A DNA stretch of 41,512 nt from a virus. The notes below the pieces were generated by a model. That model saw only the letters and a program-made list of their open reading frames with translations, was not told the DNA's origin and made no database searches. This document shows, in pieces, positions 238 through 40,638 of this stretch. Position 1 is the first letter of the stretch. Each line of letters starts with the position of its first letter. A program made the translations under genes and the position numbers. Where the stretch lies: UHGV virus genome UHGV-0155266, one strand, 5' to 3'.

Positions 238-258
238 GGCCGCGCATGCGGCCTTTTT
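238..258 (+). terminator. rho-independent terminator-like hairpin
   Basis: GGCCGC/GCGGCC stem (238-243 and 248-253) followed by TTTTT at 254-258; lies between the small ORF and the convergent 445-aa gene. Confidence 0.5.
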
Positions 259-1594
259 AGTCTGGATATTGAACATCTACTTCATTTTTTCTAATCTCTG
301 ATGAGATTTTTGAGCACGCTTTTATTAATTCATCCAAGACAATAGCGAGTTTGGCAAAATCATAATTGCTAAAACCCTTACTTCCTGGTTTTAGTTTCAT
401 GAATTTTTTCGTGTAATAGTCTTTATTTTCCAGCGCTCCTTGATAAGCATCACTTTCCTTTTTGTAATTTGACCACCGGATTTTCGCTTCATCATAATCA
501 GAAAATCTTAGATCCAGATAGCATTCAATCGCTACAGCCCGGCCATTGATGTTTTCATAGGTAACGCCGTGAGGACCAATAGCTGGAAATTGATTGAAAT
601 GAGGAAGATCAGGAAGATGAATGCAGCTAATATTGTGAGGCAATGCGAGTTTGCGGATTTTTTCATATGCCTCAATCCCTTCGCAATCATTATCTAACAC
701 GAAAACAATCAAGTTTTGAATGTCGATTTTTACGAGCCCAGCAGCGAACTTAACCAGATTTCCTGAACCAGTGAACGGGTACCCTTCACTCATGTCGATA
801 AAGTGAAAAAAATCTTCTACATCAGGCCGTAAGAGGTGCAATGCGTATTTGATGACGTTGGAGTCGGTGCTTCCCTCGGTGGCAATCAGGAACTTGTCAC
901 GTCTGCGAGCATTTACCTGAATATCTTTTATATTCGCATAACCAGCAGAAACTAGATCTCCGTAATCCCAAGTGACGAATTCATTATGATTATTTGGATT
1001 TTCGGCCAAAAGTCGCATCACTGAGTATGGATGTAGTATGCTAACTAAAGTCCCAAAAGCAGACTTTTCAGACCAAGCATTATCAAAGGCATTGTCGTAT
1101 TGGGGTATCCTGCTTAATAATTCATCATTATTAAATCGGCCCTTGATAAGCTCGCGTTCTTTTATTCTATCTTTTAAGCTAATATAATCATCGTTTAGCT
1201 CGCTAATATTTACGCTCTTGATGAAGTTAACGAATTCATCAAAGCTCATCATGTTACTAATTGGCTTTGCATATTCCGGACAGGATTCGTTAAATTCCTC
1301 TTGGTATTCAATTGAATCTTTAGCCATGAGTTCATACTCATAGCGTATATTTTCAAGGGTGAAACCCAACAATTCCAATCGGTAGGCAACTTGCCCCAAA
1401 GGCTTACGCAACACAGTACGACAGAGGATGCCATCAGGAGTGTCGAAGTCCTCTCCTTCCTCTATTTGATCTTCATTTAGTGGTTTGACGTGATGATCGG
1501 CACTTTGAAACAGGCCTCCATGATCTATACCCAGCGAGTTCTTACTCCAATCTAGCCCCACTCCTGACACTTCAAGAGAAATTACAGTACCCAT
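257..1594 (-). CDS. Toprim-domain protein with uncharacterised N-terminal half (candidate nuclease/defence effector)
   Basis: 445-aa ORF with AAGG upstream. Translation has EGxxD (LIATEGSTD, near aa 238-244) and DxDxxG (LDNDCEG, near aa 300-306) about 60 aa apart, the Toprim signature. No Walker A motif anywhere. Confidence 0.8.
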   Translation of the reverse strand: MGTVISLEVSGVGLDWSKNSLGIDHGGLFQSADHHVKPLNEDQIEEGEDFDTPDGILCRTVLRKPLGQVAYRLELLGFTLENIRYEYELMAKDSIEYQEEFNESCPEYAKPISNMMSFDEFVNFIKSVNISELNDDYISLKDRIKERELIKGRFNNDELLSRIPQYDNAFDNAWSEKSAFGTLVSILHPYSVMRLLAENPNNHNEFVTWDYGDLVSAGYANIKDIQVNARRRDKFLIATEGSTDSNVIKYALHLLRPDVEDFFHFIDMSEGYPFTGSGNLVKFAAGLVKIDIQNLIVFVLDNDCEGIEAYEKIRKLALPHNISCIHLPDLPHFNQFPAIGPHGVTYENINGRAVAIECYLDLRFSDYDEAKIRWSNYKKESDAYQGALENKDYYTKKFMKLKPGSKGFSNYDFAKLAIVLDELIKACSKISSEIRKNEVDVQYPD

Positions 1595-1975: not shown

Positions 1976-2905
1976 ATGTCTGAAATAACTTCAGCTCCTG
2001 CTGTTATGGCGGCACTAGTATCTGCATTAGTTACGGTTTTATTATTTTTTATAAAAGGTGTATGCACACCTTTATGGAATAAATATTTCATTGTTTACAA
2101 AATCAAAGTTGAACATAGCTACGAACAAAAGAAGAAAATCAAAGAGGCGATATCAAAATATAAAATGCCTTTACTCGATTCAGCTGAGTCATTGAATCAT
2201 AGGTTGTGGAATTTTTCAGGAAATTGCACTAAAGGATGGCATAATTTCAAAAATAATGAATCAATTGGTGATAAATATTACCTACAAACTTTTTGTTATC
2301 GATTTTTAGCATTTTATGCTTGGTGTATAAAGTTCGAAAGAGAGTTGATATATTTAGATGTAACACTTTCAGAAAAGAACGATCTTTATTTTGTGAAGTA
2401 TATTAAAACCATGCAAAATATATTTTGCGATGCTTCGATGTTGAGTGGGACTGGTTATGATAATGAGCATGCTGTAGACCATTTTTTCAAGGATGACCTT
2501 ATTAGTATTGTGGAAAAAATGATTACACCTACAGGAGTTATTACTTATTCAGAATTCAAATCTAAATCAGAGTCTGAATTAGACTATACACAGGTTTGCA
2601 AGTACATATCCACCATAATGAGTGACAAATCTTGCAATAAATGGCATTTAATTAACTGTTTCCATTTTATCCTGATGGCCTTTTTGTCAAAGTATGGATA
2701 TGACTATCAAAGAACTGGGTTGTTTAAACTATATAAGCTGCGCTGCTCAGAACCTCAAAATAAGCTGATAAATAATTTTGAAAGGTTAGTATTCAATGCA
2801 AGATTAAATAAATGCAGAGAAATAAAGAAAGCAATAACTATTCTCGAATGCAAATCTAAAATTGCCAATCTCTGTAATTCCCTGAAATTAATAAAAGAGA
2901 ATTAG
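1976..2905 (+). CDS. hypothetical membrane-anchored protein (AT-rich accessory gene)
   Basis: 309-aa ORF with one hydrophobic N-terminal helix (PAVMAALVSALVTVLLFFI), Lys/Asn/Tyr/Cys-rich remainder, AT-rich codon usage; divergent from the Toprim gene. No HExxH, so not Lit. Confidence 0.7.
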   Translation: MSEITSAPAVMAALVSALVTVLLFFIKGVCTPLWNKYFIVYKIKVEHSYEQKKKIKEAISKYKMPLLDSAESLNHRLWNFSGNCTKGWHNFKNNESIGDKYYLQTFCYRFLAFYAWCIKFERELIYLDVTLSEKNDLYFVKYIKTMQNIFCDASMLSGTGYDNEHAVDHFFKDDLISIVEKMITPTGVITYSEFKSKSESELDYTQVCKYISTIMSDKSCNKWHLINCFHFILMAFLSKYGYDYQRTGLFKLYKLRCSEPQNKLINNFERLVFNARLNKCREIKKAITILECKSKIANLCNSLKLIKEN

Positions 2906-3118: not shown

Positions 3119-4249
3119 TCACAAAGCTACTTTGCTCCAGCCTTTCCCACGGTCATCATGATAACGATCGGTTTGTTGCTGTGTTTTGTGACCAAGTAGT
3201 TTTTGTGTATCTAATCCCTGTTCCTTGTAAAGGCGTTCAGATAAAGATCGTTGCTCATGGAATGTGGCAGGTGAACCTTCCCCCCAGTTAATTTCTGCTA
3301 AATCTCTTGCTTTACTAAAATTCATCGTCAATGTATTGGATTTTACCTGTGCTCCACGTTCTGCCTGCGAAGTTGAACGGAAAAAATGCACTAAGTATGG
3401 GCTGACTGCATAGTCACGGCAGCGAGCTACTACATCACGTAAACTCCAGTTAATCGCATTGAGGCGAAGAGAAAGCGGAATTGCGATTTTGCTCCCTGTC
3501 TTTTCTTGTACGACATGAAGATGATCATCCCAAATATCGCTAAATTTCATACGTGAAATATCACCTAACCGCTGACCAGTAACCAAGGCTAGCAGCATGG
3601 CATTTCCCATGTAACGATGGCTGGCATCTGCGATATCGAATATTTTTTTCCATTCTTCGAGGCTCAGCCGTTGTCGGGTAATTTTTCTTCTTGGCTGTTT
3701 AGTAGCTAATGCAGGGTTATAGCCAGGAGGTACTTCTCCGTAGTGCTGCGCCTCTTTGAAAACATCAATCAGGACGGATCGAACTACTTGTGCCATTCTC
3801 GGTTGCCCAGCGGCAATATACTCATCAAGTAATTGTGCAATATCCCGGACATCAACAGCTGAAATTAGCTTCAATCCTGCCCGTTCTCTAAGTAAGGAGA
3901 CAGGTTTGGCTTTCTGCTTGTAGGTGTTGAGCTTTATATCACCACTTTTCAGCCTGTCATTCTGGATCGCTTGATAGCGATCTAACCAAGTTGACGTTGT
4001 GATTGCTTTCCCTTTGCTGGTTGCGATCCTGTCACTGATGGCCAGAATCTGCCGGGTTCTTTGTTCAGCCAGGCGCGTATTGGCTTCAGTGGCAATAGCG
4101 ATAGCTTCAGCTTCGTTTGTTCCCAAAGCATGGAATTTCCCTGTTATTGGATGCTTATACCGCCAATAGACTTTATTTACCTTTCGGCTATAAAGCGGAT
4201 ATAAGTTAGGGACTGAAACATTATTCTTACGCGGTCTGGCTGCCATCAC
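3119..4249 (-). CDS. int: tyrosine integrase (lambda Int family)
   Basis: 376-aa ORF with the lambda-integrase-like layout (N-terminal arm-binding region, C-terminal catalytic region ending with conserved His/Tyr context); overlaps xis 3' end. Start is GTG at 4249 or ATG at 4246. Confidence 0.9.
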   Translation of the reverse strand: MMAARPRKNNVSVPNLYPLYSRKVNKVYWRYKHPITGKFHALGTNEAEAIAIATEANTRLAEQRTRQILAISDRIATSKGKAITTSTWLDRYQAIQNDRLKSGDIKLNTYKQKAKPVSLLRERAGLKLISAVDVRDIAQLLDEYIAAGQPRMAQVVRSVLIDVFKEAQHYGEVPPGYNPALATKQPRRKITRQRLSLEEWKKIFDIADASHRYMGNAMLLALVTGQRLGDISRMKFSDIWDDHLHVVQEKTGSKIAIPLSLRLNAINWSLRDVVARCRDYAVSPYLVHFFRSTSQAERGAQVKSNTLTMNFSKARDLAEINWGEGSPATFHEQRSLSERLYKEQGLDTQKLLGHKTQQQTDRYHDDRGKGWSKVAL

Positions 4250-5843: not shown

Positions 5844-6734
5844 ATGGAAGACGCGCTTTACGCTTTTAATTACACACAGAACCGGGACAAGTTATTTGCT
5901 AACTTGATTAGCATCATTGATGGAATCATTGCAGATGGAGTTGTCCGTGAAGAGGAGGTTCTTTACTTAGATACATGGTTACTTGAAGCAAAGCAGATTA
6001 TCAATAATGGAGTTATAAAAAGTCTATCAGCACGGGTGTCGGATATTCTTGCGGATGGAATAATCACATCAGAAGAACGTGATGACCTTAAAAATAGCCT
6101 TCTCCAAATACAGAGGGAAATTCTTGATATCCCTGAAATTGATTTTTACTCCAAGGATGTAGATGTCCATTTACTTAATGGACTATGTAAAGGATTAATT
6201 GCTGATCGGAACTTAACTCAAGAAGAAATAAGATATCTTAATTGGTGGCTTGAGCAAAATGGAGCTTTGAAGAACAACTACCCAGGAAAAAAACTTTATG
6301 CACTTGTAAAGGAAATTCTTAAAGATGGGGTTATTACTGAAGATGAGAGTTTAACTCTACATAAGGCATTAGTAGACTTCACAGGATGTGACTTGGAAAG
6401 TGGGGTGGTGGATGGTTTGGCGACCAGGCTGCCTATTGATGTAGGGGCTTCGATAGAGTTAGAGGGTAAAACCTATTGTCTTACAGGCACTTTTGTTGCA
6501 GGAAAGAGAGCCGTAGTTGAAAATTTGATTAAAAATGCTGGTGGGAACATCAGTAGTGGAATTACTCAAAAGTTGGATTTTTTAGTAATTGGGACGCTTT
6601 CCTCCCGTGATTGGAAATTCTCAAGTCACGGAAGGAAGATCGAAAAAGCTATATCTTATAGGGATGATAATGGTGCAAAACTTAAAATTATTTCTGAAGA
6701 AATGCTTTTCGATGCATTACCAAGTTCGCGATGA
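5844..6734 (+). CDS. BRCT-domain protein with four N-terminal tandem repeats
   Basis: ATG at 5844 after AGGAGG. C-terminus (GKTYCLTGTF...LDFLVIG...) follows the NAD-ligase-type BRCT pattern. N-terminus has four roughly 45-aa repeats sharing a D-G-[VI]-[VI]-T-x-[ED]-E motif. Confidence 0.75.
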   Translation: MEDALYAFNYTQNRDKLFANLISIIDGIIADGVVREEEVLYLDTWLLEAKQIINNGVIKSLSARVSDILADGIITSEERDDLKNSLLQIQREILDIPEIDFYSKDVDVHLLNGLCKGLIADRNLTQEEIRYLNWWLEQNGALKNNYPGKKLYALVKEILKDGVITEDESLTLHKALVDFTGCDLESGVVDGLATRLPIDVGASIELEGKTYCLTGTFVAGKRAVVENLIKNAGGNISSGITQKLDFLVIGTLSSRDWKFSSHGRKIEKAISYRDDNGAKLKIISEEMLFDALPSSR

Positions 6735-13345: not shown

Positions 13346-14098
13346 ATGAACCTTGAAGCCTTACCAAAATATTACTCCCCAAAATCTCCAAAATTGAGTG
13401 ATGACGCACCGGCGACAGGCTCGGGTGGTTTAACAATTACAGATGTGATGGCTGCGCAGGGGATGGTGCAGTCGAAAGCACCACTGGGTTTTGCCTTATT
13501 CCTGGCAAAAGTTGGTGTTCAGGATCCTCAGTTTGCGATTGAAGGTCTGCTCAATTACGCGATGGCACTGGATAACCCGACATTGAACAAATTGAGTGAA
13601 GAAACCCGGCTACAGATCATTCCTTACCTTGTGAATTTTGCCTTTGCTGATTATTCCAGATCTGCGGCAAGTAAGGCTCGCTGTGAGCATTGTGCTGGTA
13701 CTGGATTTCATAATGTATTGCGCGAAGTGGTGAAACACTCCAGAAACGGGGAATCTGTTATCAAGGAAGAGTGGGTGAAGGAACTATGTCAGCATTGTCA
13801 TGGTAAGGGAGAAGTCAGCACAGCGTGCAGAGGATGTAAGGGTAAAGGTATTGTCCTGGATGAAAAAAGAACCCGGCTTCATGGCACGCCTGTTTATAAG
13901 ATTTGTGGGCGTTGCAATGGAAACCGATTTAGCCGTTTACCAACCACACTGGCACGACGTCATGTCCAGAATCTGGTAACAGACCTGACGGATTATCAGT
14001 GGTACAAAGGATATGCAGACGTCATTGATAAACTGGTTACAAAGTGCTGGCAGGAAGAAGCATATGCTGAAGCGCAATTGAGAAAAGTGACAAGATAA
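13346..14098 (+). CDS. late-gene antitermination protein Q-like
   Basis: 250-aa ORF at the end of the early region with paired-Cys zinc-binding clusters (CEHCAGTG, CQHCHGKG, CRGCKGKG, CGRCNG); lysis and late genes follow. Confidence 0.65.
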   Translation: MNLEALPKYYSPKSPKLSDDAPATGSGGLTITDVMAAQGMVQSKAPLGFALFLAKVGVQDPQFAIEGLLNYAMALDNPTLNKLSEETRLQIIPYLVNFAFADYSRSAASKARCEHCAGTGFHNVLREVVKHSRNGESVIKEEWVKELCQHCHGKGEVSTACRGCKGKGIVLDEKRTRLHGTPVYKICGRCNGNRFSRLPTTLARRHVQNLVTDLTDYQWYKGYADVIDKLVTKCWQEEAYAEAQLRKVTR

Positions 14099-14252: not shown

Positions 14253-14783
14253 ATGTTATACCGAGATCTTCTGCCTATTTTCTCAGAAAGAACCATATTT
14301 GAAGCTCCTGAGGCTGAAAGAATACTTCGTGAGCAATATTCTATCATTGCCCCCTCTCCTGTAATTCAGGAGATTTATTATGGATTGGTAGGTGATGACA
14401 GATTTCAGAAGCTTTATGGGGATCTTGATATTGACCAAATTGAATGGAAATTGATTGAACTTCCCACTAAAAACTTTTTAACTATCGGGGATAATGCTAC
14501 TTGCCCTGATTTTTTGCATGAGGTCGTTGAAGATTACATGACCCGTAAAGGTGATGTATTTATGGATGATGAAATAAAAGCGCATTGGTGTAATTTTGGC
14601 ACATGGTGCGAACCACCATTTTTTATAGATCGAGCTTTGCTGAAAAGTAATACAACAGGGCTCCATTTAATGGAAGGGCATACAAGAGTTGGAACCCTGT
14701 TAGGGGCAGTTAAGTATAACTTCGTTAAGCTTGCTAATACTCATAAAATTTATTATGCGCAAGCAAAAGAATGTATTAAATAA
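14253..14783 (+). CDS. hypothetical protein (post-Q moron, AT-rich)
   Basis: 176-aa ORF in the slot directly downstream of Q, followed by its own terminator; AT-rich relative to neighbours; no recognisable motif. Confidence 0.6.
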   Translation: MLYRDLLPIFSERTIFEAPEAERILREQYSIIAPSPVIQEIYYGLVGDDRFQKLYGDLDIDQIEWKLIELPTKNFLTIGDNATCPDFLHEVVEDYMTRKGDVFMDDEIKAHWCNFGTWCEPPFFIDRALLKSNTTGLHLMEGHTRVGTLLGAVKYNFVKLANTHKIYYAQAKECIK

Positions 14784-17792: not shown

Positions 17793-18419
17793 TCAGTTGT
17801 CAAATGAATATACGTTAAAGGTATATGTCGACATAATTTCACCAAGTACCTCAATACATACACTTTTTTTATGAAAATTACTGGGAAATGAACTTAGCTC
17901 CTCAAGACATTGCACATAAGTGCTGATATCACTTGCATCACGTTCAAGGAATTTCACTTGACCAAAAGAAGGAGTTTTAATCTTGGTTCTTTGCTGGATT
18001 ATATGGATAAAGTGTGTAGTTGGTGAAACTATTACTCTTGAAATATCGGAAATGATGTCTTCTTGAACTTGCCGATAAAGTAAATCCTTTGGATAATGGT
18101 GTTTTATCTCGATGGTTGCAACATTGCCATTATGTTCAGACGTTAATATCGACTGGTTATAAAGTGATATGTCAACAGCGCCGATACCGAGTTTTGGATG
18201 CTCACTTAAAGCAGTTAGTGTGCTGATTTGATTGAGTATAACAACTAACTCATCACGTATTTGTGTTTCATGTTTGCGATTGTAGAAGTAGCCATTCAGT
18301 TCATTTAACTTTTTATGCATCCTATCGTGACTAATTGCTTCGATCAGTAAATCCTGAATCATACTTTTCTCTAGGTAATCCGAACGGTTGTAAGTGACAG
18401 TATTGTGCTGGCATGTCAT
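17793..18419 (-). CDS. hypothetical protein (208 aa), downstream gene of a minus-strand cassette
   Basis: AT-rich ORF opposite to the flanking lysis and packaging genes; no recognisable motif; weak RBS, so the start is uncertain. Confidence 0.6.
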   Translation of the reverse strand: MTCQHNTVTYNRSDYLEKSMIQDLLIEAISHDRMHKKLNELNGYFYNRKHETQIRDELVVILNQISTLTALSEHPKLGIGAVDISLYNQSILTSEHNGNVATIEIKHHYPKDLLYRQVQEDIISDISRVIVSPTTHFIHIIQQRTKIKTPSFGQVKFLERDASDISTYVQCLEELSSFPSNFHKKSVCIEVLGEIMSTYTFNVYSFDN

Positions 18420-18462: not shown

Positions 18463-18798
18463 TCATCGATAGAAAAACTTTACAGCCCACTCGTAAACAG
18501 CTTTGTAAATCGGTTCATGGTAAATACTATCGATACTATTCAGATATGCGATCATCGCCTCCACAGTTGTAGTGGTTGTTTCTAATATTTCGATTATTGC
18601 AGGGCGGTCATCATCTTCATCGAAGTATTCGAACAGCAGTACAGGTTTACCATGCAATTCAGCATCTGAGACTCTAAGGTTACAACTACCGCTCAACTCA
18701 AAGTGAATTTTGTAATTACCTTCTACAGAATGGCCTACGGGGAAAAAGTATAGGGTGTCATCTTTGTTCAAAAGCCATGCCCATTCATAACTATTCAT
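18463..18798 (-). CDS. hypothetical acidic protein (111 aa), upstream gene of the minus-strand cassette
   Basis: ATG at 18798 preceded by AGGAG with a 7-nt spacer; the track ORF begins 6 codons earlier; contains an acidic patch (EYFDEDDDRPAIIEILE). Confidence 0.6.
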   Translation of the reverse strand: MNSYEWAWLLNKDDTLYFFPVGHSVEGNYKIHFELSGSCNLRVSDAELHGKPVLLFEYFDEDDDRPAIIEILETTTTTVEAMIAYLNSIDSIYHEPIYKAVYEWAVKFFYR

Positions 18799-18948
18799 TT
18801 GTGAACTCCTGTTCATTGAGTTTCAACAACTATCAACTACATCCAGCGAAGCATAAAAGATCGTTTATGGCAAAACCGGAATGGAGTGCGATTCGATTCT
18901 GAGAAGGGTGCCACGTATCGTACGCGAACCATCCAAGAGGATTATGCA

Positions 18949-29237: not shown

Positions 29238-29386
29238 CGGCTGAATACCTCACTGATCGCTTCTTTGACTGCGCCAGCTACTGGCGCATTAATCCCTTCG
29301 AATTGCTGAATATGCCGATCAGTGAAATTCCCTTGCTGGTCAGTCAGGCAAACAGGATAGAGCAGGAGAAACGCACACATGGCTGA
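29219..29386 (+). CDS. -1 frameshift extension of the tail assembly chaperone
   Basis: Slippery T_TTT_TTC at 29219-29225; the -1 frame stays open to 29386, overlapping the tape-measure start. Confidence 0.5.
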   Translation, partial: FFPPGLTAEYLTDRFFDCASYWRINPFELLNMPISEIPLLVSQANRIEQEKRTHG

Positions 29387-31211
29387 ATTTGAGCTTAAGG
29401 CGTTGATCACCGGTGTCGACAGGCTTTCTCCCGCGCTGTCGAAAATGCAAAAGAAAATCCGGGGATTTAAACGCCAGGCGGAAGAAGCGTCACAGGGTGG
29501 GCTGGCGCTTGGTGGCGGACTGGCAGCGGGTCTGACGCTTTCCCTGAAATCTTATGCCGATCAGGAAAACGCCGCCACCGGGCTGAAAGTCGCCATGATG
29601 GATGCGAACGGCGAGGTTGGAAAGAGCTTTCAGGACATCAATAAACTGGCTATTGGCCTGGGTAATCAGCTACCCGGTACAACGGCTGATTTCCAGAACA
29701 TGATGCAGATGCTGGTGCGTCGGGGGATCCCGGCAGAAAACATTCTTGGCGGTGTGGGTAAAGCGACAGCTTATCTTGCGGTACAACTGAAAAAAACACC
29801 GGAAGCGGCTGCCGAGTTTGCCGCAAAGATGCAGGATGCTACCGGAACGGCGTCAGAAGACATGATGGGGCTGTTCGACACTATCCAGAAGGCGTTTTAT
29901 CTGGGCGTTGACGATACCAACATGTTGTCCTTCTTCACTAAAACCAGTTCTGTTCTGAAGATGGTGAACAAGGACGGTCTTCAGGCTGCACAGAGCCTTG
30001 CCCCCATCAGCGTCATGATGGATCAGATGGGGATGAACGGGGAGTCGGCAGGTAACGCCCTGCGAAAAGTTATCCAGTCCGGATTAAGCGTTAAGAAAAT
30101 CAGGGACGTCAATAAAATCATGGCCCGCCAGAAACTCGGGGTACAGCTCGATTTTACTGACGGCAAAGGGAGTTTTGGCGGTCTTGATAACATGTTCAGG
30201 CAACTGGCAAAGCTGCGAAAACTGACCGACGTTAAGCGAACAGGCGTACTTAAGGCAATATTTGGTGATGATGCTGAAACCCTTCAGGTGGTCAATGCAC
30301 TAATCGATAAAGGAAAGGATGGCTACGATCAGATCCAGCAGAAGATGAATAAACAGGCCAGCCTGAATAAACGTGTTCAGGCTCAGCTTGGTACGCTGTC
30401 CAACCTGTGGGAGGCAATGACGGGGACCGCAACTAACGGTCTTGCAGCTATTGGCGGCGCATTTTCTGGTGACGCCAAAAATATCACGCAGTGGCTGGGG
30501 GAGTTGGGGGAGAAATTCACGAAGTTTGCGGATGAAAATCCCCGGGTTATTCGCGGCGTCGTCGGGCTTGCTGCCGGTCTTGCGATTCTGAAACTGGGAT
30601 TGATGGGCGTGGGCAGTGCCATCAGTATTGTCAGCAGGATTATGTCGATGACGCCGATTGGCATGATTGCGACGGCGATTGCTCTGGCTGCGGGATTAAT
30701 TATCACTAACTGGGATGTTGTCGGACCTTATTTTAAGAAGCTCTGGGAAACCATTGGTCCTTATTTTGAGGCTGGCTGGGAACTTCTGAAGAAGGTTTTT
30801 GCCTGGTCGCCGCTGGGGATGGTGATCAATAACTGGGGACCGGTTGTTAAGTGGTTTCAGGATATGTGGGATAAGCTGAAGCCAATTATTGAGTGGTTTA
30901 CCGACAGTTCCGGTGACACGGTCGATGCCATTAACTCTGCGCAGTGGGGCGCGGGTGCTTATGATGCTTATGGGACGGGAATACCGGCGCGGGGATACAC
31001 ACCTTATCCGGCGGTAGATCTGGCTCAGTCAAACAACGCCTCCGATGCCACAGGCCCGAATCCCTTCATGATTAACAAAGCTTCTGCGCCAAAAGTTGAT
31101 GGTGAGATCAAGGTATCATTTATAAATATGCCACCAGGTATGCGGGTTACGGAAACACGCTCCAGTGGCATTGATATAAATCACGATGTTGGCTATACCC
31201 GATTTTGGTAG
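29379..31211 (+). CDS. tail tape measure protein
   Basis: 610-aa protein, Ala/Gly-rich with helical and TM segments; directly downstream of the frameshifted chaperone. Confidence 0.85.
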   Translation: MAEFELKALITGVDRLSPALSKMQKKIRGFKRQAEEASQGGLALGGGLAAGLTLSLKSYADQENAATGLKVAMMDANGEVGKSFQDINKLAIGLGNQLPGTTADFQNMMQMLVRRGIPAENILGGVGKATAYLAVQLKKTPEAAAEFAAKMQDATGTASEDMMGLFDTIQKAFYLGVDDTNMLSFFTKTSSVLKMVNKDGLQAAQSLAPISVMMDQMGMNGESAGNALRKVIQSGLSVKKIRDVNKIMARQKLGVQLDFTDGKGSFGGLDNMFRQLAKLRKLTDVKRTGVLKAIFGDDAETLQVVNALIDKGKDGYDQIQQKMNKQASLNKRVQAQLGTLSNLWEAMTGTATNGLAAIGGAFSGDAKNITQWLGELGEKFTKFADENPRVIRGVVGLAAGLAILKLGLMGVGSAISIVSRIMSMTPIGMIATAIALAAGLIITNWDVVGPYFKKLWETIGPYFEAGWELLKKVFAWSPLGMVINNWGPVVKWFQDMWDKLKPIIEWFTDSSGDTVDAINSAQWGAGAYDAYGTGIPARGYTPYPAVDLAQSNNASDATGPNPFMINKASAPKVDGEIKVSFINMPPGMRVTETRSSGIDINHDVGYTRFW

Positions 31212-31302
31212 CCAGGATTCCCCTCACAGGTATTGCTGGTTGTAAGTCATAAATAGAGTGATAGAATTAATGCACATTTAGAAAAATGTTAATAGGCGAA
31301 AA

Positions 31303-31833
31303 ATGAAAGGCTATATCACAGCAAGTGTAATTCTTGGAGCAGCGGCTGTTTTTTCATCTCTCATAATCTCTGGCAACATCTCCTTTAAAGATGAACATAT
31401 TATTCAGTTATCTGGAGGAGCCATAAAACTTGGTGATGTTTATAAAGAAAATAAATTGATAAGTGCAAAGATTATTTTTCCAGATAATCAGGGTGAACAG
31501 ATTCTTGTTGTCGACGGCAATCCTGAAAACTTTAAGGAGGATTTTCAGGAGAAATTAAATAAAGTAATAAAAACTTTAAATGCGTCAAAGAAAAAAGATG
31601 AAGAGAAAGTTAGCCTGGATAATTTAAGTGTTATTGAAGAGTCTAAACTAGAGCTCGTTTCTGCGGTGCGTTACTCTGCTCAGTATGTTCCTATGTTTAC
31701 TCTGACGCTGGACAAAAAAGAAATTACCATGCCTAAAAATACGGTAATATTTCCATTTGCCAGCGATGAAACAGCTAAGTATTTAAATGAACAACAGCAA
31801 AAGTATAAAGATTCGTTGTTTCTGACTCGCTAA
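31303..31833 (+). CDS. hypothetical secreted/membrane-anchored protein (tail-region moron)
   Basis: 176-aa AT-rich ORF with a signal-peptide-like N-terminus (ITASVILGAAAVFSSLIISG) and its own terminator, inserted between tape measure and baseplate genes. Confidence 0.55.
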   Translation: MKGYITASVILGAAAVFSSLIISGNISFKDEHIIQLSGGAIKLGDVYKENKLISAKIIFPDNQGEQILVVDGNPENFKEDFQEKLNKVIKTLNASKKKDEEKVSLDNLSVIEESKLELVSAVRYSAQYVPMFTLTLDKKEITMPKNTVIFPFASDETAKYLNEQQQKYKDSLFLTR

Positions 31834-31853
31834 TTAATAAAATTCATTACAAG

Positions 31854-31878
31854 GCCACCTTCTAATAGGTGGCTTTTT
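31854..31878 (+). terminator. rho-independent terminator
   Basis: GCCACCT-TCTAAT-AGGTGGC hairpin followed by TTTTT. Confidence 0.6.
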
Positions 31879-31894
31879 AATTTTCGGAGTATAT

Positions 31895-33223
31895 ATGACG
31901 TGGAAAGACAGGCTTCAGGATGCGTCATTTCGAGGTGTGCCGTTTAAGGTTGAAGAAGAAAGTGCGGGAACTGGCCGTCGTGTGGAAACGCACGAATACC
32001 CGAACCGCGACAAACCCTATACCGAAGACCTGGGGAAAATCACTTTCCGCCCGTCCATCACGGCTTATGTGGTGGGAGATGACTGCTTTGACCAGCGCGA
32101 TCGCCTGATTGACGCGCTGAATAAACCCGGTCCCGGCACGCTTGTCCATCCGACTTACGGTGAGCTGAAAGTCTGTGTTGACGGAGAAGTTCGGGTCAGT
32201 ACATCGAAGAGTGAAGGGCGTATTGTCCGCTTTGACCTGAAGTTTGTCGAAGCAGGAGAACTCTCTTACCCCACATCAGGTGCGGCGACGGCGCAGGCGC
32301 TGATGTCATCCTGTTCTGCACTGGATGACTGCATCAGTAACAGCTTCAGCGGTTTCAGTATCGATGGCGTGGCGGATTTTGTGCAGAACGACGTTGTCGG
32401 TAATGCCAGCACAATGCTTGGGTATGTTTCTGATGCGATGAAAGTGGTGGATTCTGCCGTATCGGATGCCGCCAGGCTGTTGCAGGGGGATATCTCGGTA
32501 CTTCTGCCGCCGCCATCGTCAGGCAAAAATTTCGTTGAGCAGGTGCAGAAAATGTGGCGTACCGGGAAACGCCTTTATGGTAACGCCAGCGACCTGGTCA
32601 CCATGATCAAAACGCTTTCCGGGGTCAGTCTCGGCAGCAATCTGCAACCCCGCGGCATCTGGAAAACGGACAGTAAAACCACCGCCACGGCTACGCAGCA
32701 GCGTAACGTGGTTGCCAGCACCCTTCGTACGACCGCAATCAGCGAAGCGGCGTATGCCGTCACACGATTGCCTGCGCCCACAACTTCCGCGGTGATGCAG
32801 AATGCCACAGTGGGGCAGTCAACAACACCCGCGCAGAGCACTGGCTGGCCTTCCGTCACGCATCCGGCACTGAACAATGCACCTGCGGTGAAAAACACGG
32901 TTGACCTGCCAACGTGGGAAGAACTGACCGACATTCGCGACACACTGAATACGGCAATTGATAAGGAGTTGTCCCGTACAACCAGTGATGCGCTGTTTCT
33001 GGCGCTGCGCCGGGTGAAAGCAGATCTGAATGCGGATATCAACACGCGCCTTGAACAGTCTGCACGGATCATTCAGCGCACGCCGGATGAGGTTTTACCC
33101 GCGCTGGTGCTGGCGGCGACCTGGTTTGATAACGCGGCGCGTGACGCGGACATTATCCGGCGTAATGCCATTACACATCCCGGCTTTGTGCCGGTGATCC
33201 CTCTGAAGGTGCCAGTGCAATGA
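31895..33223 (+). CDS. Mu gpN-like DNA circularisation / tail protein
   Basis: 442-aa protein; the N-terminus resembles the Mu N family as recalled; follows the tape measure as in Mu. Confidence 0.7.
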   Translation: MTWKDRLQDASFRGVPFKVEEESAGTGRRVETHEYPNRDKPYTEDLGKITFRPSITAYVVGDDCFDQRDRLIDALNKPGPGTLVHPTYGELKVCVDGEVRVSTSKSEGRIVRFDLKFVEAGELSYPTSGAATAQALMSSCSALDDCISNSFSGFSIDGVADFVQNDVVGNASTMLGYVSDAMKVVDSAVSDAARLLQGDISVLLPPPSSGKNFVEQVQKMWRTGKRLYGNASDLVTMIKTLSGVSLGSNLQPRGIWKTDSKTTATATQQRNVVASTLRTTAISEAAYAVTRLPAPTTSAVMQNATVGQSTTPAQSTGWPSVTHPALNNAPAVKNTVDLPTWEELTDIRDTLNTAIDKELSRTTSDALFLALRRVKADLNADINTRLEQSARIIQRTPDEVLPALVLAATWFDNAARDADIIRRNAITHPGFVPVIPLKVPVQ

Positions 33224-39804: not shown

Positions 39805-40638
39805 ATGCATGTTTTTGATAATAATGGAATTGAACTGAAAGCTGAGTGTTCGATAGGTGAAGAGGATGGTGTTTATGGTCTAATCCTTGAGTCGTGGGGG
39901 CCGGGTGACAGAAACAAAGATTACAATATCGCTCTTGATTATATCATTGAACGGTTGGTTGATTCTGGTGTATCCCAAGTCGTAGTATATCTGGCGTCAT
40001 CATCAGTCAGAAAACATATGCATTCTTTGGATGAAAGAAAAATCCATCCTGGTGAATATTTTACTTTGATTGGTAATAGCCCCCGCGATATACGCTTGAA
40101 GATGTGTGGTTATCAGGCTTATTTTAGTCGTACGGGGAGAAAGGAAATTCCTTCCGGCAATAGAACGAAACGAATATTGATAAATGTCCCAGGTATTTAT
40201 AGTGACAGTTTTTGGGCGTCTATAATACGTGGAGAACTATCAGAGCTTTCACAGCCTACAGATGATGAATCGCTTCTGAATATGAGGGTTAGTAAATTAA
40301 TTAAGAAAACGTTGAGTCAACCCGAGGGCTCCAGGAAACCAGTTGAGGTAGAAAGACTACAAAAAGTTTATGTCCGAGACCCGATGGTAAAAGCTTGGAT
40401 TTTACAGCAAAGTAAAGGTATATGTGAAAACTGTGGTAAAAATGCTCCGTTTTATTTAAATGATGGAAACCCATATTTGGAAGTGCATCATGTAATTCCC
40501 CTGTCTTCAGGTGGTGCTGATACAACAGATAACTGTGTTGCCCTTTGTCCGAATTGCCATAGAGAATTGCACTATAGTAAAAATGCAAAAGAACTAATCG
40601 AGATGCTTTACGTTAATATAAACCGATTACAGAAATAA
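39805..40638 (+). CDS. mcrA: McrA-like modified-cytosine restriction endonuclease (HNH)
   Basis: 277-aa protein with a C-terminal HNH motif (HHVIPLSSGGADTTDNCVALCPNCH); sequence and position (after pin at the e14 right end) match E. coli McrA as recalled. Confidence 0.85.
   Translation: MHVFDNNGIELKAECSIGEEDGVYGLILESWGPGDRNKDYNIALDYIIERLVDSGVSQVVVYLASSSVRKHMHSLDERKIHPGEYFTLIGNSPRDIRLKMCGYQAYFSRTGRKEIPSGNRTKRILINVPGIYSDSFWASIIRGELSELSQPTDDESLLNMRVSKLIKKTLSQPEGSRKPVEVERLQKVYVRDPMVKAWILQQSKGICENCGKNAPFYLNDGNPYLEVHHVIPLSSGGADTTDNCVALCPNCHRELHYSKNAKELIEMLYVNINRLQK

Follow-up and report, generated by a model that had tools for sequence, protein, structure and literature searches.

An optional AT-rich cassette between the tape-measure and gp43-like genes of an SfV-like phage encodes a predicted inner-membrane protein with a possible role in superinfection exclusion

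The virus genome UHGV-0155266 (41,512 nt, called the window here at its full length) carries between its tail tape-measure gene and its Mu gp43-like gene a 683-bp insert with a single gene for a protein of 176 amino acids (aa), which belongs to the family PHROG 5485. That this cassette is a moron, an optional and self-contained AT-rich cargo, is well supported, and the junction in which it lies is a recombination hotspot for interchangeable cargo. The product is predicted to be a bitopic inner-membrane protein with a periplasmic domain, and we tentatively suggest, by analogy with known systems and from the position of the gene, that its most likely function would be superinfection exclusion at the genome-entry step.

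RESULTS AND DISCUSSION

The cassette is optional among near-identical phages

The phage in the window is of the SfV/SfI/SfII-like type, and the DNA that flanks the cassette is 95–96% identical to that of SfI, SfII, SfV and Escherichia coli phages such as SKA5. The cassette is absent from SfI, SfII, SfV, SfIV and SKA5; SfI, SfII and SfV have ~60 bp at the junction instead of 683 bp, and their tape-measure and gp43-like proteins share 98% identity with those of the window. Because SfI, SfII and SfV are viable and characterised without the cassette, its product is not a required virion or assembly component, and the conserved virion protein that the initial annotation had named as its counter-case is not what these phages present. 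Among 5,426 complete E. coli genomes the cassette was found at ≥98% identity in 174 (∼3%), and the junction between the tape-measure and gp43-like genes is present in 868, of which ∼174 (∼20%) hold the cassette. All 29 full-length matches listed among the cassette-bearing genomes are labelled 'hypothetical protein'. Hence the comparison of related prophages that the initial annotation had proposed gives both states of the site, and its description of a moron between tape-measure and baseplate genes agrees with the near-identical phages that lack the gene and with the unrelated cargo that others carry there (see below). Three of the features by which morons are recognised are found here: presence or absence between otherwise near-identical phage genomes, a base composition that deviates from the neighbouring genes, and a terminator of its own downstream.

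A near-identical prophage in strain LST200A (NZ_CP110858) ends at a partial icd gene beside iraM; this phage thus integrates at the e14 site, at icd. The cassette also occurs with tail-module genes of the SfV-like type in a 37,667-bp circular 'plasmid' of E. coli CX04 (NZ_CP081716.1, our locus L104). In the 6.7-kb stretch examined the annotation has many frameshifts and gives the cargo gene a length of 104 aa only; we suspect that this record may be an excised phage genome assembled from error-prone reads.

Position, composition and signals of the cassette

The cassette and its flanks comprise the following features (positions in the window, all on the plus strand):

29379–31211: tail tape-measure protein gene, left flank; 610 aa, PF10145 PhageMin_Tail (E = 1.5e-26) and PHROG tape-measure families
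31212–31302: AT-rich leader of 91 nt with a promoter-like site and a weak Shine-Dalgarno sequence (AGG) ∼8 nt 5′ of the ATG
31303–31833: cargo coding sequence, 176 aa, member of PHROG 5485; RefSeq WP_000679481.1-type 'hypothetical protein'
31306–31371: predicted transmembrane anchor, codons 2–23, N-in, C-out, from the Kyte-Doolittle peak, the AlphaFold2 helix and the charge bias of the family
31372–31830: predicted exported α/β domain, codons 24–176
31851–31885: intrinsic-terminator-like hairpin (AAGGCCACCT-TCTAAT-AGGTGGCTTT) of 10 pairs with a T-run; hairpin/T-run at 31851–31876
31895–33223: Mu gp43/N-like DNA-circularisation (baseplate hub-associated) gene, right flank; PF07157 DNA_circ_N (E = 6e-34), phrog_184 baseplate hub

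The interval 31212–31894 is thus the whole intergenic insert, and the only open reading frame (ORF) in it is 31303–31833, in agreement with the AT-rich insert and 176-aa ORF first annotated. The G+C content (GC) of the insert is 0.34 and its GC at third codon positions is 0.30, compared with 0.515 and 0.56 for the tape-measure gene; in 200-nt windows GC is 0.30–0.37 inside the insert and 0.52–0.60 in the flanks, which have ∼55% GC as a whole. The tape-measure protein on the left is 98% identical to the SfII and SKA5 versions, and its sequence has hydrophobic C-terminal segments.

A sigma-70-like site lies at 31240–31267 (TTGTAA-16-TAGAAT with TG upstream; a consensus match only), and promoter-like sites were also present 5′ of four of the six other family members examined (L092, 11/12; L010; L007; L008). 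At the other end, the terminator hairpin is located directly 5′ of the ribosome-binding site (GGAG) of the next gene. A hairpin with a T-run closes every cargo variant as well as the empty site; the hairpin sequence differs with each cargo variant, and the T-run and ribosome-binding site after it are conserved. Since the empty site of SfII has its own annotated terminator hairpin, the terminator is a standing feature of the junction, so that the terminator ascribed to the cassette in the initial annotation does exist but does not belong to the cassette alone. The operon that was described there as tightly coupled is not so at this point: the empty junction of SfII has ∼60 bp and a hairpin, and the junction is therefore not tightly coupled even when empty. 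A scan with Rfam gave a sub-threshold match to a Phe leader over the terminator, which we rejected, and no Rfam family in the insert.

We looked around the cassette for signatures of the transposon type and found no flanking direct or inverted repeats; the cassette was thus most likely mobilised via recombination in the conserved flanks.

The cargo gene is under purifying selection and belongs to a previously unannotated family

The protein of the window matched PHROG 5485 (unknown function) with E = 4.3e-108, residues 1–176 aligning to profile positions 1–176, and a distant member (L101) also matched this profile (1.9e-29). An exhaustive profile search returned 77 representative clusters, with lengths of ∼165–250 aa, mostly 170–200, a few partial sequences apart. 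The 58 near-full-length members that make up our family alignment share an N-terminal hydrophobic segment and conserved residues G39, L43, G44, E49, Y124 and L134. A word-indexed search returned close relatives in Enterobacteriaceae only, all of them labelled hypothetical, and the family was previously unannotated in every library searched.

The cargo ORF is a real gene under purifying selection. In E. coli prophage contigs 76 full-length copies were compared, of which 75 have an intact reading frame, and 26 alleles with 14 synonymous and 10 non-synonymous changes gave a ratio of non-synonymous to synonymous polymorphism (pN/pS) of 0.19. The sole disrupted copy, at 6001–6529 of an E. coli prophage from IMG/VR (L084), has a one-base insertion near codon 18.

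The junction is a hotspot for interchangeable cargo

We searched for other occupants of the junction with a query made of both flanks joined, which gave several discrete spacings between the flanks, and identified the occupants from annotated records. Besides the PHROG 5485 cassette, these came from E. coli prophages and phage SKA5 (L094/L095, L096/L098, L097 and L001):

+63 bp: empty site, more frequent than any other state in the listed records
+683 bp: PHROG 5485 cassette
+589 or +446 bp, minus strand: transmembrane-anchored OB-fold protein (PF12869 tRNA_anti-like), matching phrog_8545 'superinfection exclusion Sie-like' at 1.3e-49 (L094/L095)
+821 bp: 225-aa lipoprotein with an LLGGC lipobox, phrog_1353
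+496 bp: 125-aa bPH_1 protein
684 bp in phage SKA5: 166-aa signal-peptide protein, phrog_8976

The cassette is thus replaced by at least four further cargo genes unrelated to it, one of which lies on the opposite strand, and the slot holds at least five unrelated small cargo genes that replace one another when PHROG 5485 is included. All occupants have a GC of 0.31–0.42, and four of the five cargo types, PHROG 5485 among them, are envelope-targeted. These observations make the junction between the tape-measure and gp43-like genes a recombination hotspot for interchangeable cargo. PADLOC recognises none of the junction cargo types. In the searchable literature we found no description of a hotspot at this junction, and nothing on the RefSeq accession, on exclusion genes between DNA-circulation and tape-measure genes, or on tRNA_anti-like superinfection-exclusion (Sie) proteins.

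The product is predicted to be a bitopic inner-membrane protein

Residues 5–23 of the protein are strongly hydrophobic (19-residue Kyte-Doolittle mean 2.09), and AlphaFold2 predicted a helix at residues 2–23. Across the family the median length of the uncharged stretch is 22 residues; net charge is ∼+2 on its N side and ∼−0.7 over the 15 residues that follow it. Neither a conserved signal-peptidase motif nor a conserved lipobox was found in the 58 aligned members, only one of which has a lipobox-like motif. The N-terminus, which had been described as a hydrophobic signal or anchor, is indeed hydrophobic, but its 22-residue stretch without cleavage motif or lipobox resembles an uncleaved N-in, C-out signal anchor more than a classical signal peptide; processing behind S23 or G24 is possible, the call on cleavage resting on heuristics. 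The Lys/Glu-rich body was described correctly, the protein having 11.9% Lys and 8.0% Glu, and it contains no Cys and no Trp.

With the 58-sequence alignment, AlphaFold2 returned a model with a mean predicted local distance difference test score (pLDDT) of 91.6 and a predicted template-modelling score (pTM) of 0.76. The predicted exported part of ∼150 aa is a two-layer α/β domain with these elements:

β33–36, β39–42, β46–58, β70–72, α74–93, β114–126, β132–143 and α149–171

Conservation peaks in a membrane-proximal hairpin (residues 32–49, with G39, L43, G44 and E49) and around Y124 and L134. The prediction is thus for a bitopic inner-membrane protein: a short N-terminus in the cytoplasm, a single transmembrane helix and, in the periplasm, an α/β domain of ∼150 residues. 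The fold is predicted with confidence, and no solved structure matches it convincingly. Foldseek against BFVD gave one significant match, a 144-aa 'Lipoprotein' of Pseudomonas phage ventosus (E = 2.5e-6, TM-scores 0.55 and 0.65), which judged by its name would be another envelope-tethered phage protein.

The family occurs in other genera and in other slots

Orthologues with 41–59% identity were present at the identical junction in related prophages of Leclercia (L003–L006, L008), Edwardsiella (L013) and metagenomic contigs (L010, L092); a scan of genome contigs returned one relative only, in Edwardsiella. In every case examined the orthologues are AT-rich, with a GC of 0.35–0.39 compared with 0.51–0.55 in the surrounding DNA. 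With these sequences, the cargo gene is no one-off acquisition of E. coli. It evolves faster than the structural genes, and its divergence tracks the sheath and gp43-like genes and not the tape-measure gene: between L003 and L010 the identities are 97% for the sheath, 93% for the gp43-like protein, 85% for the cargo and 40% for the tape-measure protein. A comparison of L003–L006 with L010 shows the tape-measure gene swapped as a module between otherwise near-identical tails. Between their gp43-like and gpP-like genes, these Leclercia-type phages also have two extra genes, for proteins of ∼505 and ∼94 aa without a Pfam match.

More distant members occupy other positions. One lies directly after the antiterminator gene Q (L108), one inside an unrelated Pam3/E217-like baseplate module, where it is again AT-rich with a terminator behind it (L101), one beside a TMP_3-type gene (L107) and one in an integrase island (L105); two have chromosomal contexts (L102, L103). 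In Lelliottia amnigena a lone copy of the gene is located beside icd (L007, 5860–6570) and retains its downstream terminator. Upstream of it is a stub of the 3′ end of the tape-measure gene (…EIDVNHHVSYTPIG…), and all other phage genes are gone. Because of this stub, the Lelliottia gene appears to be the sole remnant of a decayed icd-site prophage. Optionality, the hotspot, the other moron slots and the orphan copy all point to mobile, probably host-expressed cargo rather than a part of the tail.

Possible functions of the cassette protein

Our preferred reading, which we hold only tentatively, is that the protein acts in superinfection exclusion at genome entry. It is suggested by precedents in other phages (see below), by the position of the gene, by the moron architecture and by the Sie-annotated alternative cargo at the same slot. 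The tape-measure protein of the window also fits, as its hydrophobic C-terminal segments resemble those by which such proteins insert into the inner membrane and form pores. As is the case for known exclusion proteins, the gene is prophage-encoded and dispensable for phage growth, and prediction places its product in the cytoplasmic membrane. The protein would be made in the lysogen, presumably while the prophage is repressed, and would be located on the outer surface of the inner membrane. Its conserved membrane-proximal hairpin might there disturb the channel that the tape-measure or ejection proteins of an incoming phage, probably a contractile-tailed one, form, or alternatively an inner-membrane host factor needed by that channel; adsorption would proceed and DNA entry would fail. 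Superinfection exclusion or receptor masking had been proposed in the initial annotation. The former we retain as a suggestion by analogy that involves no homology; the latter is unlikely because a protein anchored in the inner membrane would be poorly placed to mask an outer-membrane receptor, and the anchor points to the DNA-entry step instead. A receptor-masking lipoprotein of the T5 Llp or phi80/N15 Cor type was also considered as a candidate and rejected, since the protein has no Cys and a lipobox-like motif occurs in just 1 of the 58 aligned members.

Several observations weigh against exclusion. No sequence or fold homology to a characterised exclusion protein was found: the protein of the window has no match in Pfam, NCBIfam or PADLOC; a Pfam scan of the 58 family members gave scattered chance-level matches, with at most three members per Pfam family; the PHROG search returned otherwise families of unknown function and a marginal match to an endonuclease family (E = 0.014), and no Sie-annotated PHROG at E ≤ 0.1. 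The best hit of a sequence-profile search of the PDB had E = 0.66, the fold search of the PDB gave no convincing match, and the BFVD 'Lipoprotein' is annotated by name alone and so gives no structural match of known function. The 'Sie-like' label of phrog_8545 is itself a database annotation for which we traced no experiment. Moreover, the known DNA-entry blockers gp15, Imm and SieA are small or polytopic and mostly membrane-embedded, and a large periplasmic α/β domain is found in none of them. Between L003 and L010 the cargo and the type of tape-measure protein do not vary together, which gives no sign of co-evolution with that target. With regard to expression, promoter-like matches in the insert are as frequent as by chance (2 found, 2.5 expected from shuffled sequence), and the gene is co-oriented with the late operon, so that it is possibly mainly a late gene. 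Finally, the family is not present in any of 50,697 deposited phage genomes searched with blastn and tblastn.

These points leave room for a lysogenic-conversion gene whose benefit is not related to phages, for example an orphan immunity protein against periplasm-acting toxins such as colicins or type VI secretion effectors, a factor in envelope stress or colonisation, or a protein that modulates a transporter of the inner membrane. Such a gene fits the moron architecture and the optional distribution equally well, orphan copies persist in chromosomes outside recognisable phages (L007, L102, L103), and no defence family of PADLOC is matched. Immunity proteins against periplasmic toxins usually have the format of an anchored periplasmic α/β domain, and this is the format predicted here. 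However, none of the contexts seen has a gene for a cognate toxin next to the cargo gene, nearly all close relatives are inside prophages, a cargo that matches a Sie-annotated PHROG (phrog_8545) uses the same slot, and the fold searches yielded no immunity-protein structure; we thus regard a benefit unrelated to phages as possible but not likely. A late accessory role in the phage's own lytic cycle, with transcription mainly as read-through from the tail operon and not in the prophage state, is improbable to a greater degree. Such a protein might stop progeny from injecting into infected or lysing cells, or tune envelope events of lysis or injection, and a late role would suit the location of the gene inside the late operon in the same orientation, the weak promoter evidence, the exact position that orthologues hold across genera with a divergence that tracks the phage, and the distant relative inside a different myovirus baseplate module. 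The gene is nevertheless absent from ∼80% of near-identical prophages and from the viable phages SfV, SfI and SfII, it alone survived the decay of a prophage in Lelliottia, and other members lie after antiterminator Q or in non-phage islands; moreover, a terminator precedes the downstream genes and promoter-like sites recur 5′ of the relatives.

A structural or assembly component of the tail, for instance a protein ejected along with the tape-measure protein, would account for the position between tape-measure and baseplate genes and for the N-terminal hydrophobic helix, which membrane-inserting ejected proteins also have. We consider this highly improbable, because viable phages whose tape-measure and gp43-like proteins are 98% identical do without the gene, unrelated genes replace it at the site, one of them on the opposite strand, the family occurs in contexts other than tails, and its sharply different GC is kept in every lineage examined.

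A further step from exclusion at genome entry would be to propose that the junction is a dedicated hotspot for interchangeable envelope exclusion genes and that PHROG 5485 represents a new structural class of exclusion protein, in which a periplasmic α/β domain on a single anchor blocks the opening of a channel by the tape-measure or tail-tube complex of contractile-tailed phages; this wider proposal is, in our view, doubtful at present. Morons in tail operons that code for envelope proteins are known to underlie phage resistance conferred by prophages, and few of them are characterised. If exclusion at DNA entry holds, predictions of therapeutic-phage host range in E. coli and its relatives among the Enterobacteriaceae would have a new protein class to screen for, the passage of contractile-tailed temperate phages through the inner membrane could be studied with a tractable probe, and one more hotspot of cargo or defence genes would be open to mining; otherwise, the cassette would add one more lysogenic-conversion gene.

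Other cargo-like loci in the window

Several other loci of the window resemble cargo. At the right end of the prophage, 39805–40638 (plus strand) encodes an AT-rich 277-aa HNH protein that matches the PADLOC model of a type IV methyl-directed restriction enzyme over its full length (E = 6.5e-203) and is thus McrA-like; given the icd end of the near-identical prophage, the phage of the window is an e14-site prophage with an mcrA-type defence gene. The loci near the left end are arranged around the integrase:

3119–4249, minus strand: integrase

To the left of it are a 445-aa protein with a HEPN/Toprim N-terminal domain (257–1594, minus strand; PF18871, E = 1.7e-48) and a 309-aa ORF with a GC of 0.31 and no match in Pfam, PHROG or PADLOC (1976–2905, plus strand). 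The two may form a two-gene defence-type cargo, a pair that PADLOC does not recognise.

Directly after antiterminator Q (13346–14098) lies an AT-rich ORF at 14253–14783 (plus strand), which matches phrog_8867 (unknown function) and occupies the slot that a distant PHROG 5485 relative holds in L108. As its product also has 176 aa, we checked it as a paralogue of the cargo protein and found it to be unrelated. Between the lysis genes and terminase are two low-GC ORFs, 17793–18419 and 18463–18816 (both minus strand; 208 and 117 aa; phrog_12494 and phrog_14397, unknown function), and this interval looks like another cargo slot. Strain LST200A has a TIR-domain protein instead in its slot between Q and holin, and a DUF262 protein at the right end.

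Comparison with known systems

The junction resembles the P2/P4-type hotspots of temperate phages that Rousset and colleagues reportedly described in 2022, in that unrelated accessory genes swap among near-identical phages at a fixed position between conserved late genes; it differs in that its cargo is small and consists mostly of envelope proteins, none of which PADLOC recognises. Within the junction, the OB-fold cargo (PF12869, phrog_8545) shares with the cassette its slot, its AT-richness (GC 0.37) and an N-terminal transmembrane anchor, with a length of 148 aa, and looks like a functional alternative at the same site, although its sequence and fold are unrelated and it lies on the opposite strand.

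The Sie2009-type proteins of lactococci have ∼160–180 aa and are thus of the same size class as the cassette protein. Together with Ltp of Streptococcus thermophilus they are anchored exclusion proteins with an external globular domain (PMC3952083); like the cassette protein they are prophage-encoded and, as predicted for it, anchored by the N-terminus, most of the chain lying outside the cytoplasmic membrane, and they block DNA injection, as we propose here. In contrast, they belong to Gram-positive hosts, have different folds (that of Ltp is helical), are encoded in the lysogeny module and show no detected homology.

T4 Imm binds the tape-measure protein of a contractile phage (bioRxiv 10.64898/2026.03.06.709160), and P22 SieA blocks the conduit of the ejection proteins (PMC10883804). 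Both are encoded by phages, reside in the inner membrane and act after adsorption by halting DNA translocation, which is what the cassette protein would do, and Imm shows that an entry block works against contractile-tailed phages. However, Imm (83 aa) and SieA are largely membrane-embedded and helical, are unlike the cassette protein in sequence and fold, and neither is encoded in a tail operon. Tab of JBD26, an 83-residue protein whose activity concerns the tape-measure protein (PMC10884400), is like the cassette a small moron within the late operon, but it blocks tail assembly rather than the DNA entry proposed for the cassette protein.

The closest parallel is gp15 of HK97, a tail-operon moron next to the tape-measure gene that blocks genome entry of superinfecting phages in a tail-dependent manner (Juhala et al. 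2000; Cumby et al. 2012; PMC3594210). Both genes are optional, deviate in GC, have promoter and terminator signals (for the cassette a promoter-like consensus match at chance frequency) and lie in a tail operon beside the tape-measure gene, and the cassette product, like gp15, is predicted to insert in the inner membrane. They differ in that their sequences are unrelated, gp15 being small and YebO-like whereas the cassette protein has 176 aa with a large periplasmic domain, and in that gp15 lies upstream of the tape-measure gene of a siphovirus whereas the cassette lies downstream of it in a Mu-like contractile tail module; exclusion was demonstrated for gp15 and is proposed by analogy for the cassette protein. 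We thus suggest that the cassette, with its textbook moron architecture, may be a functional analogue, and not a homologue, of HK97 gp15.

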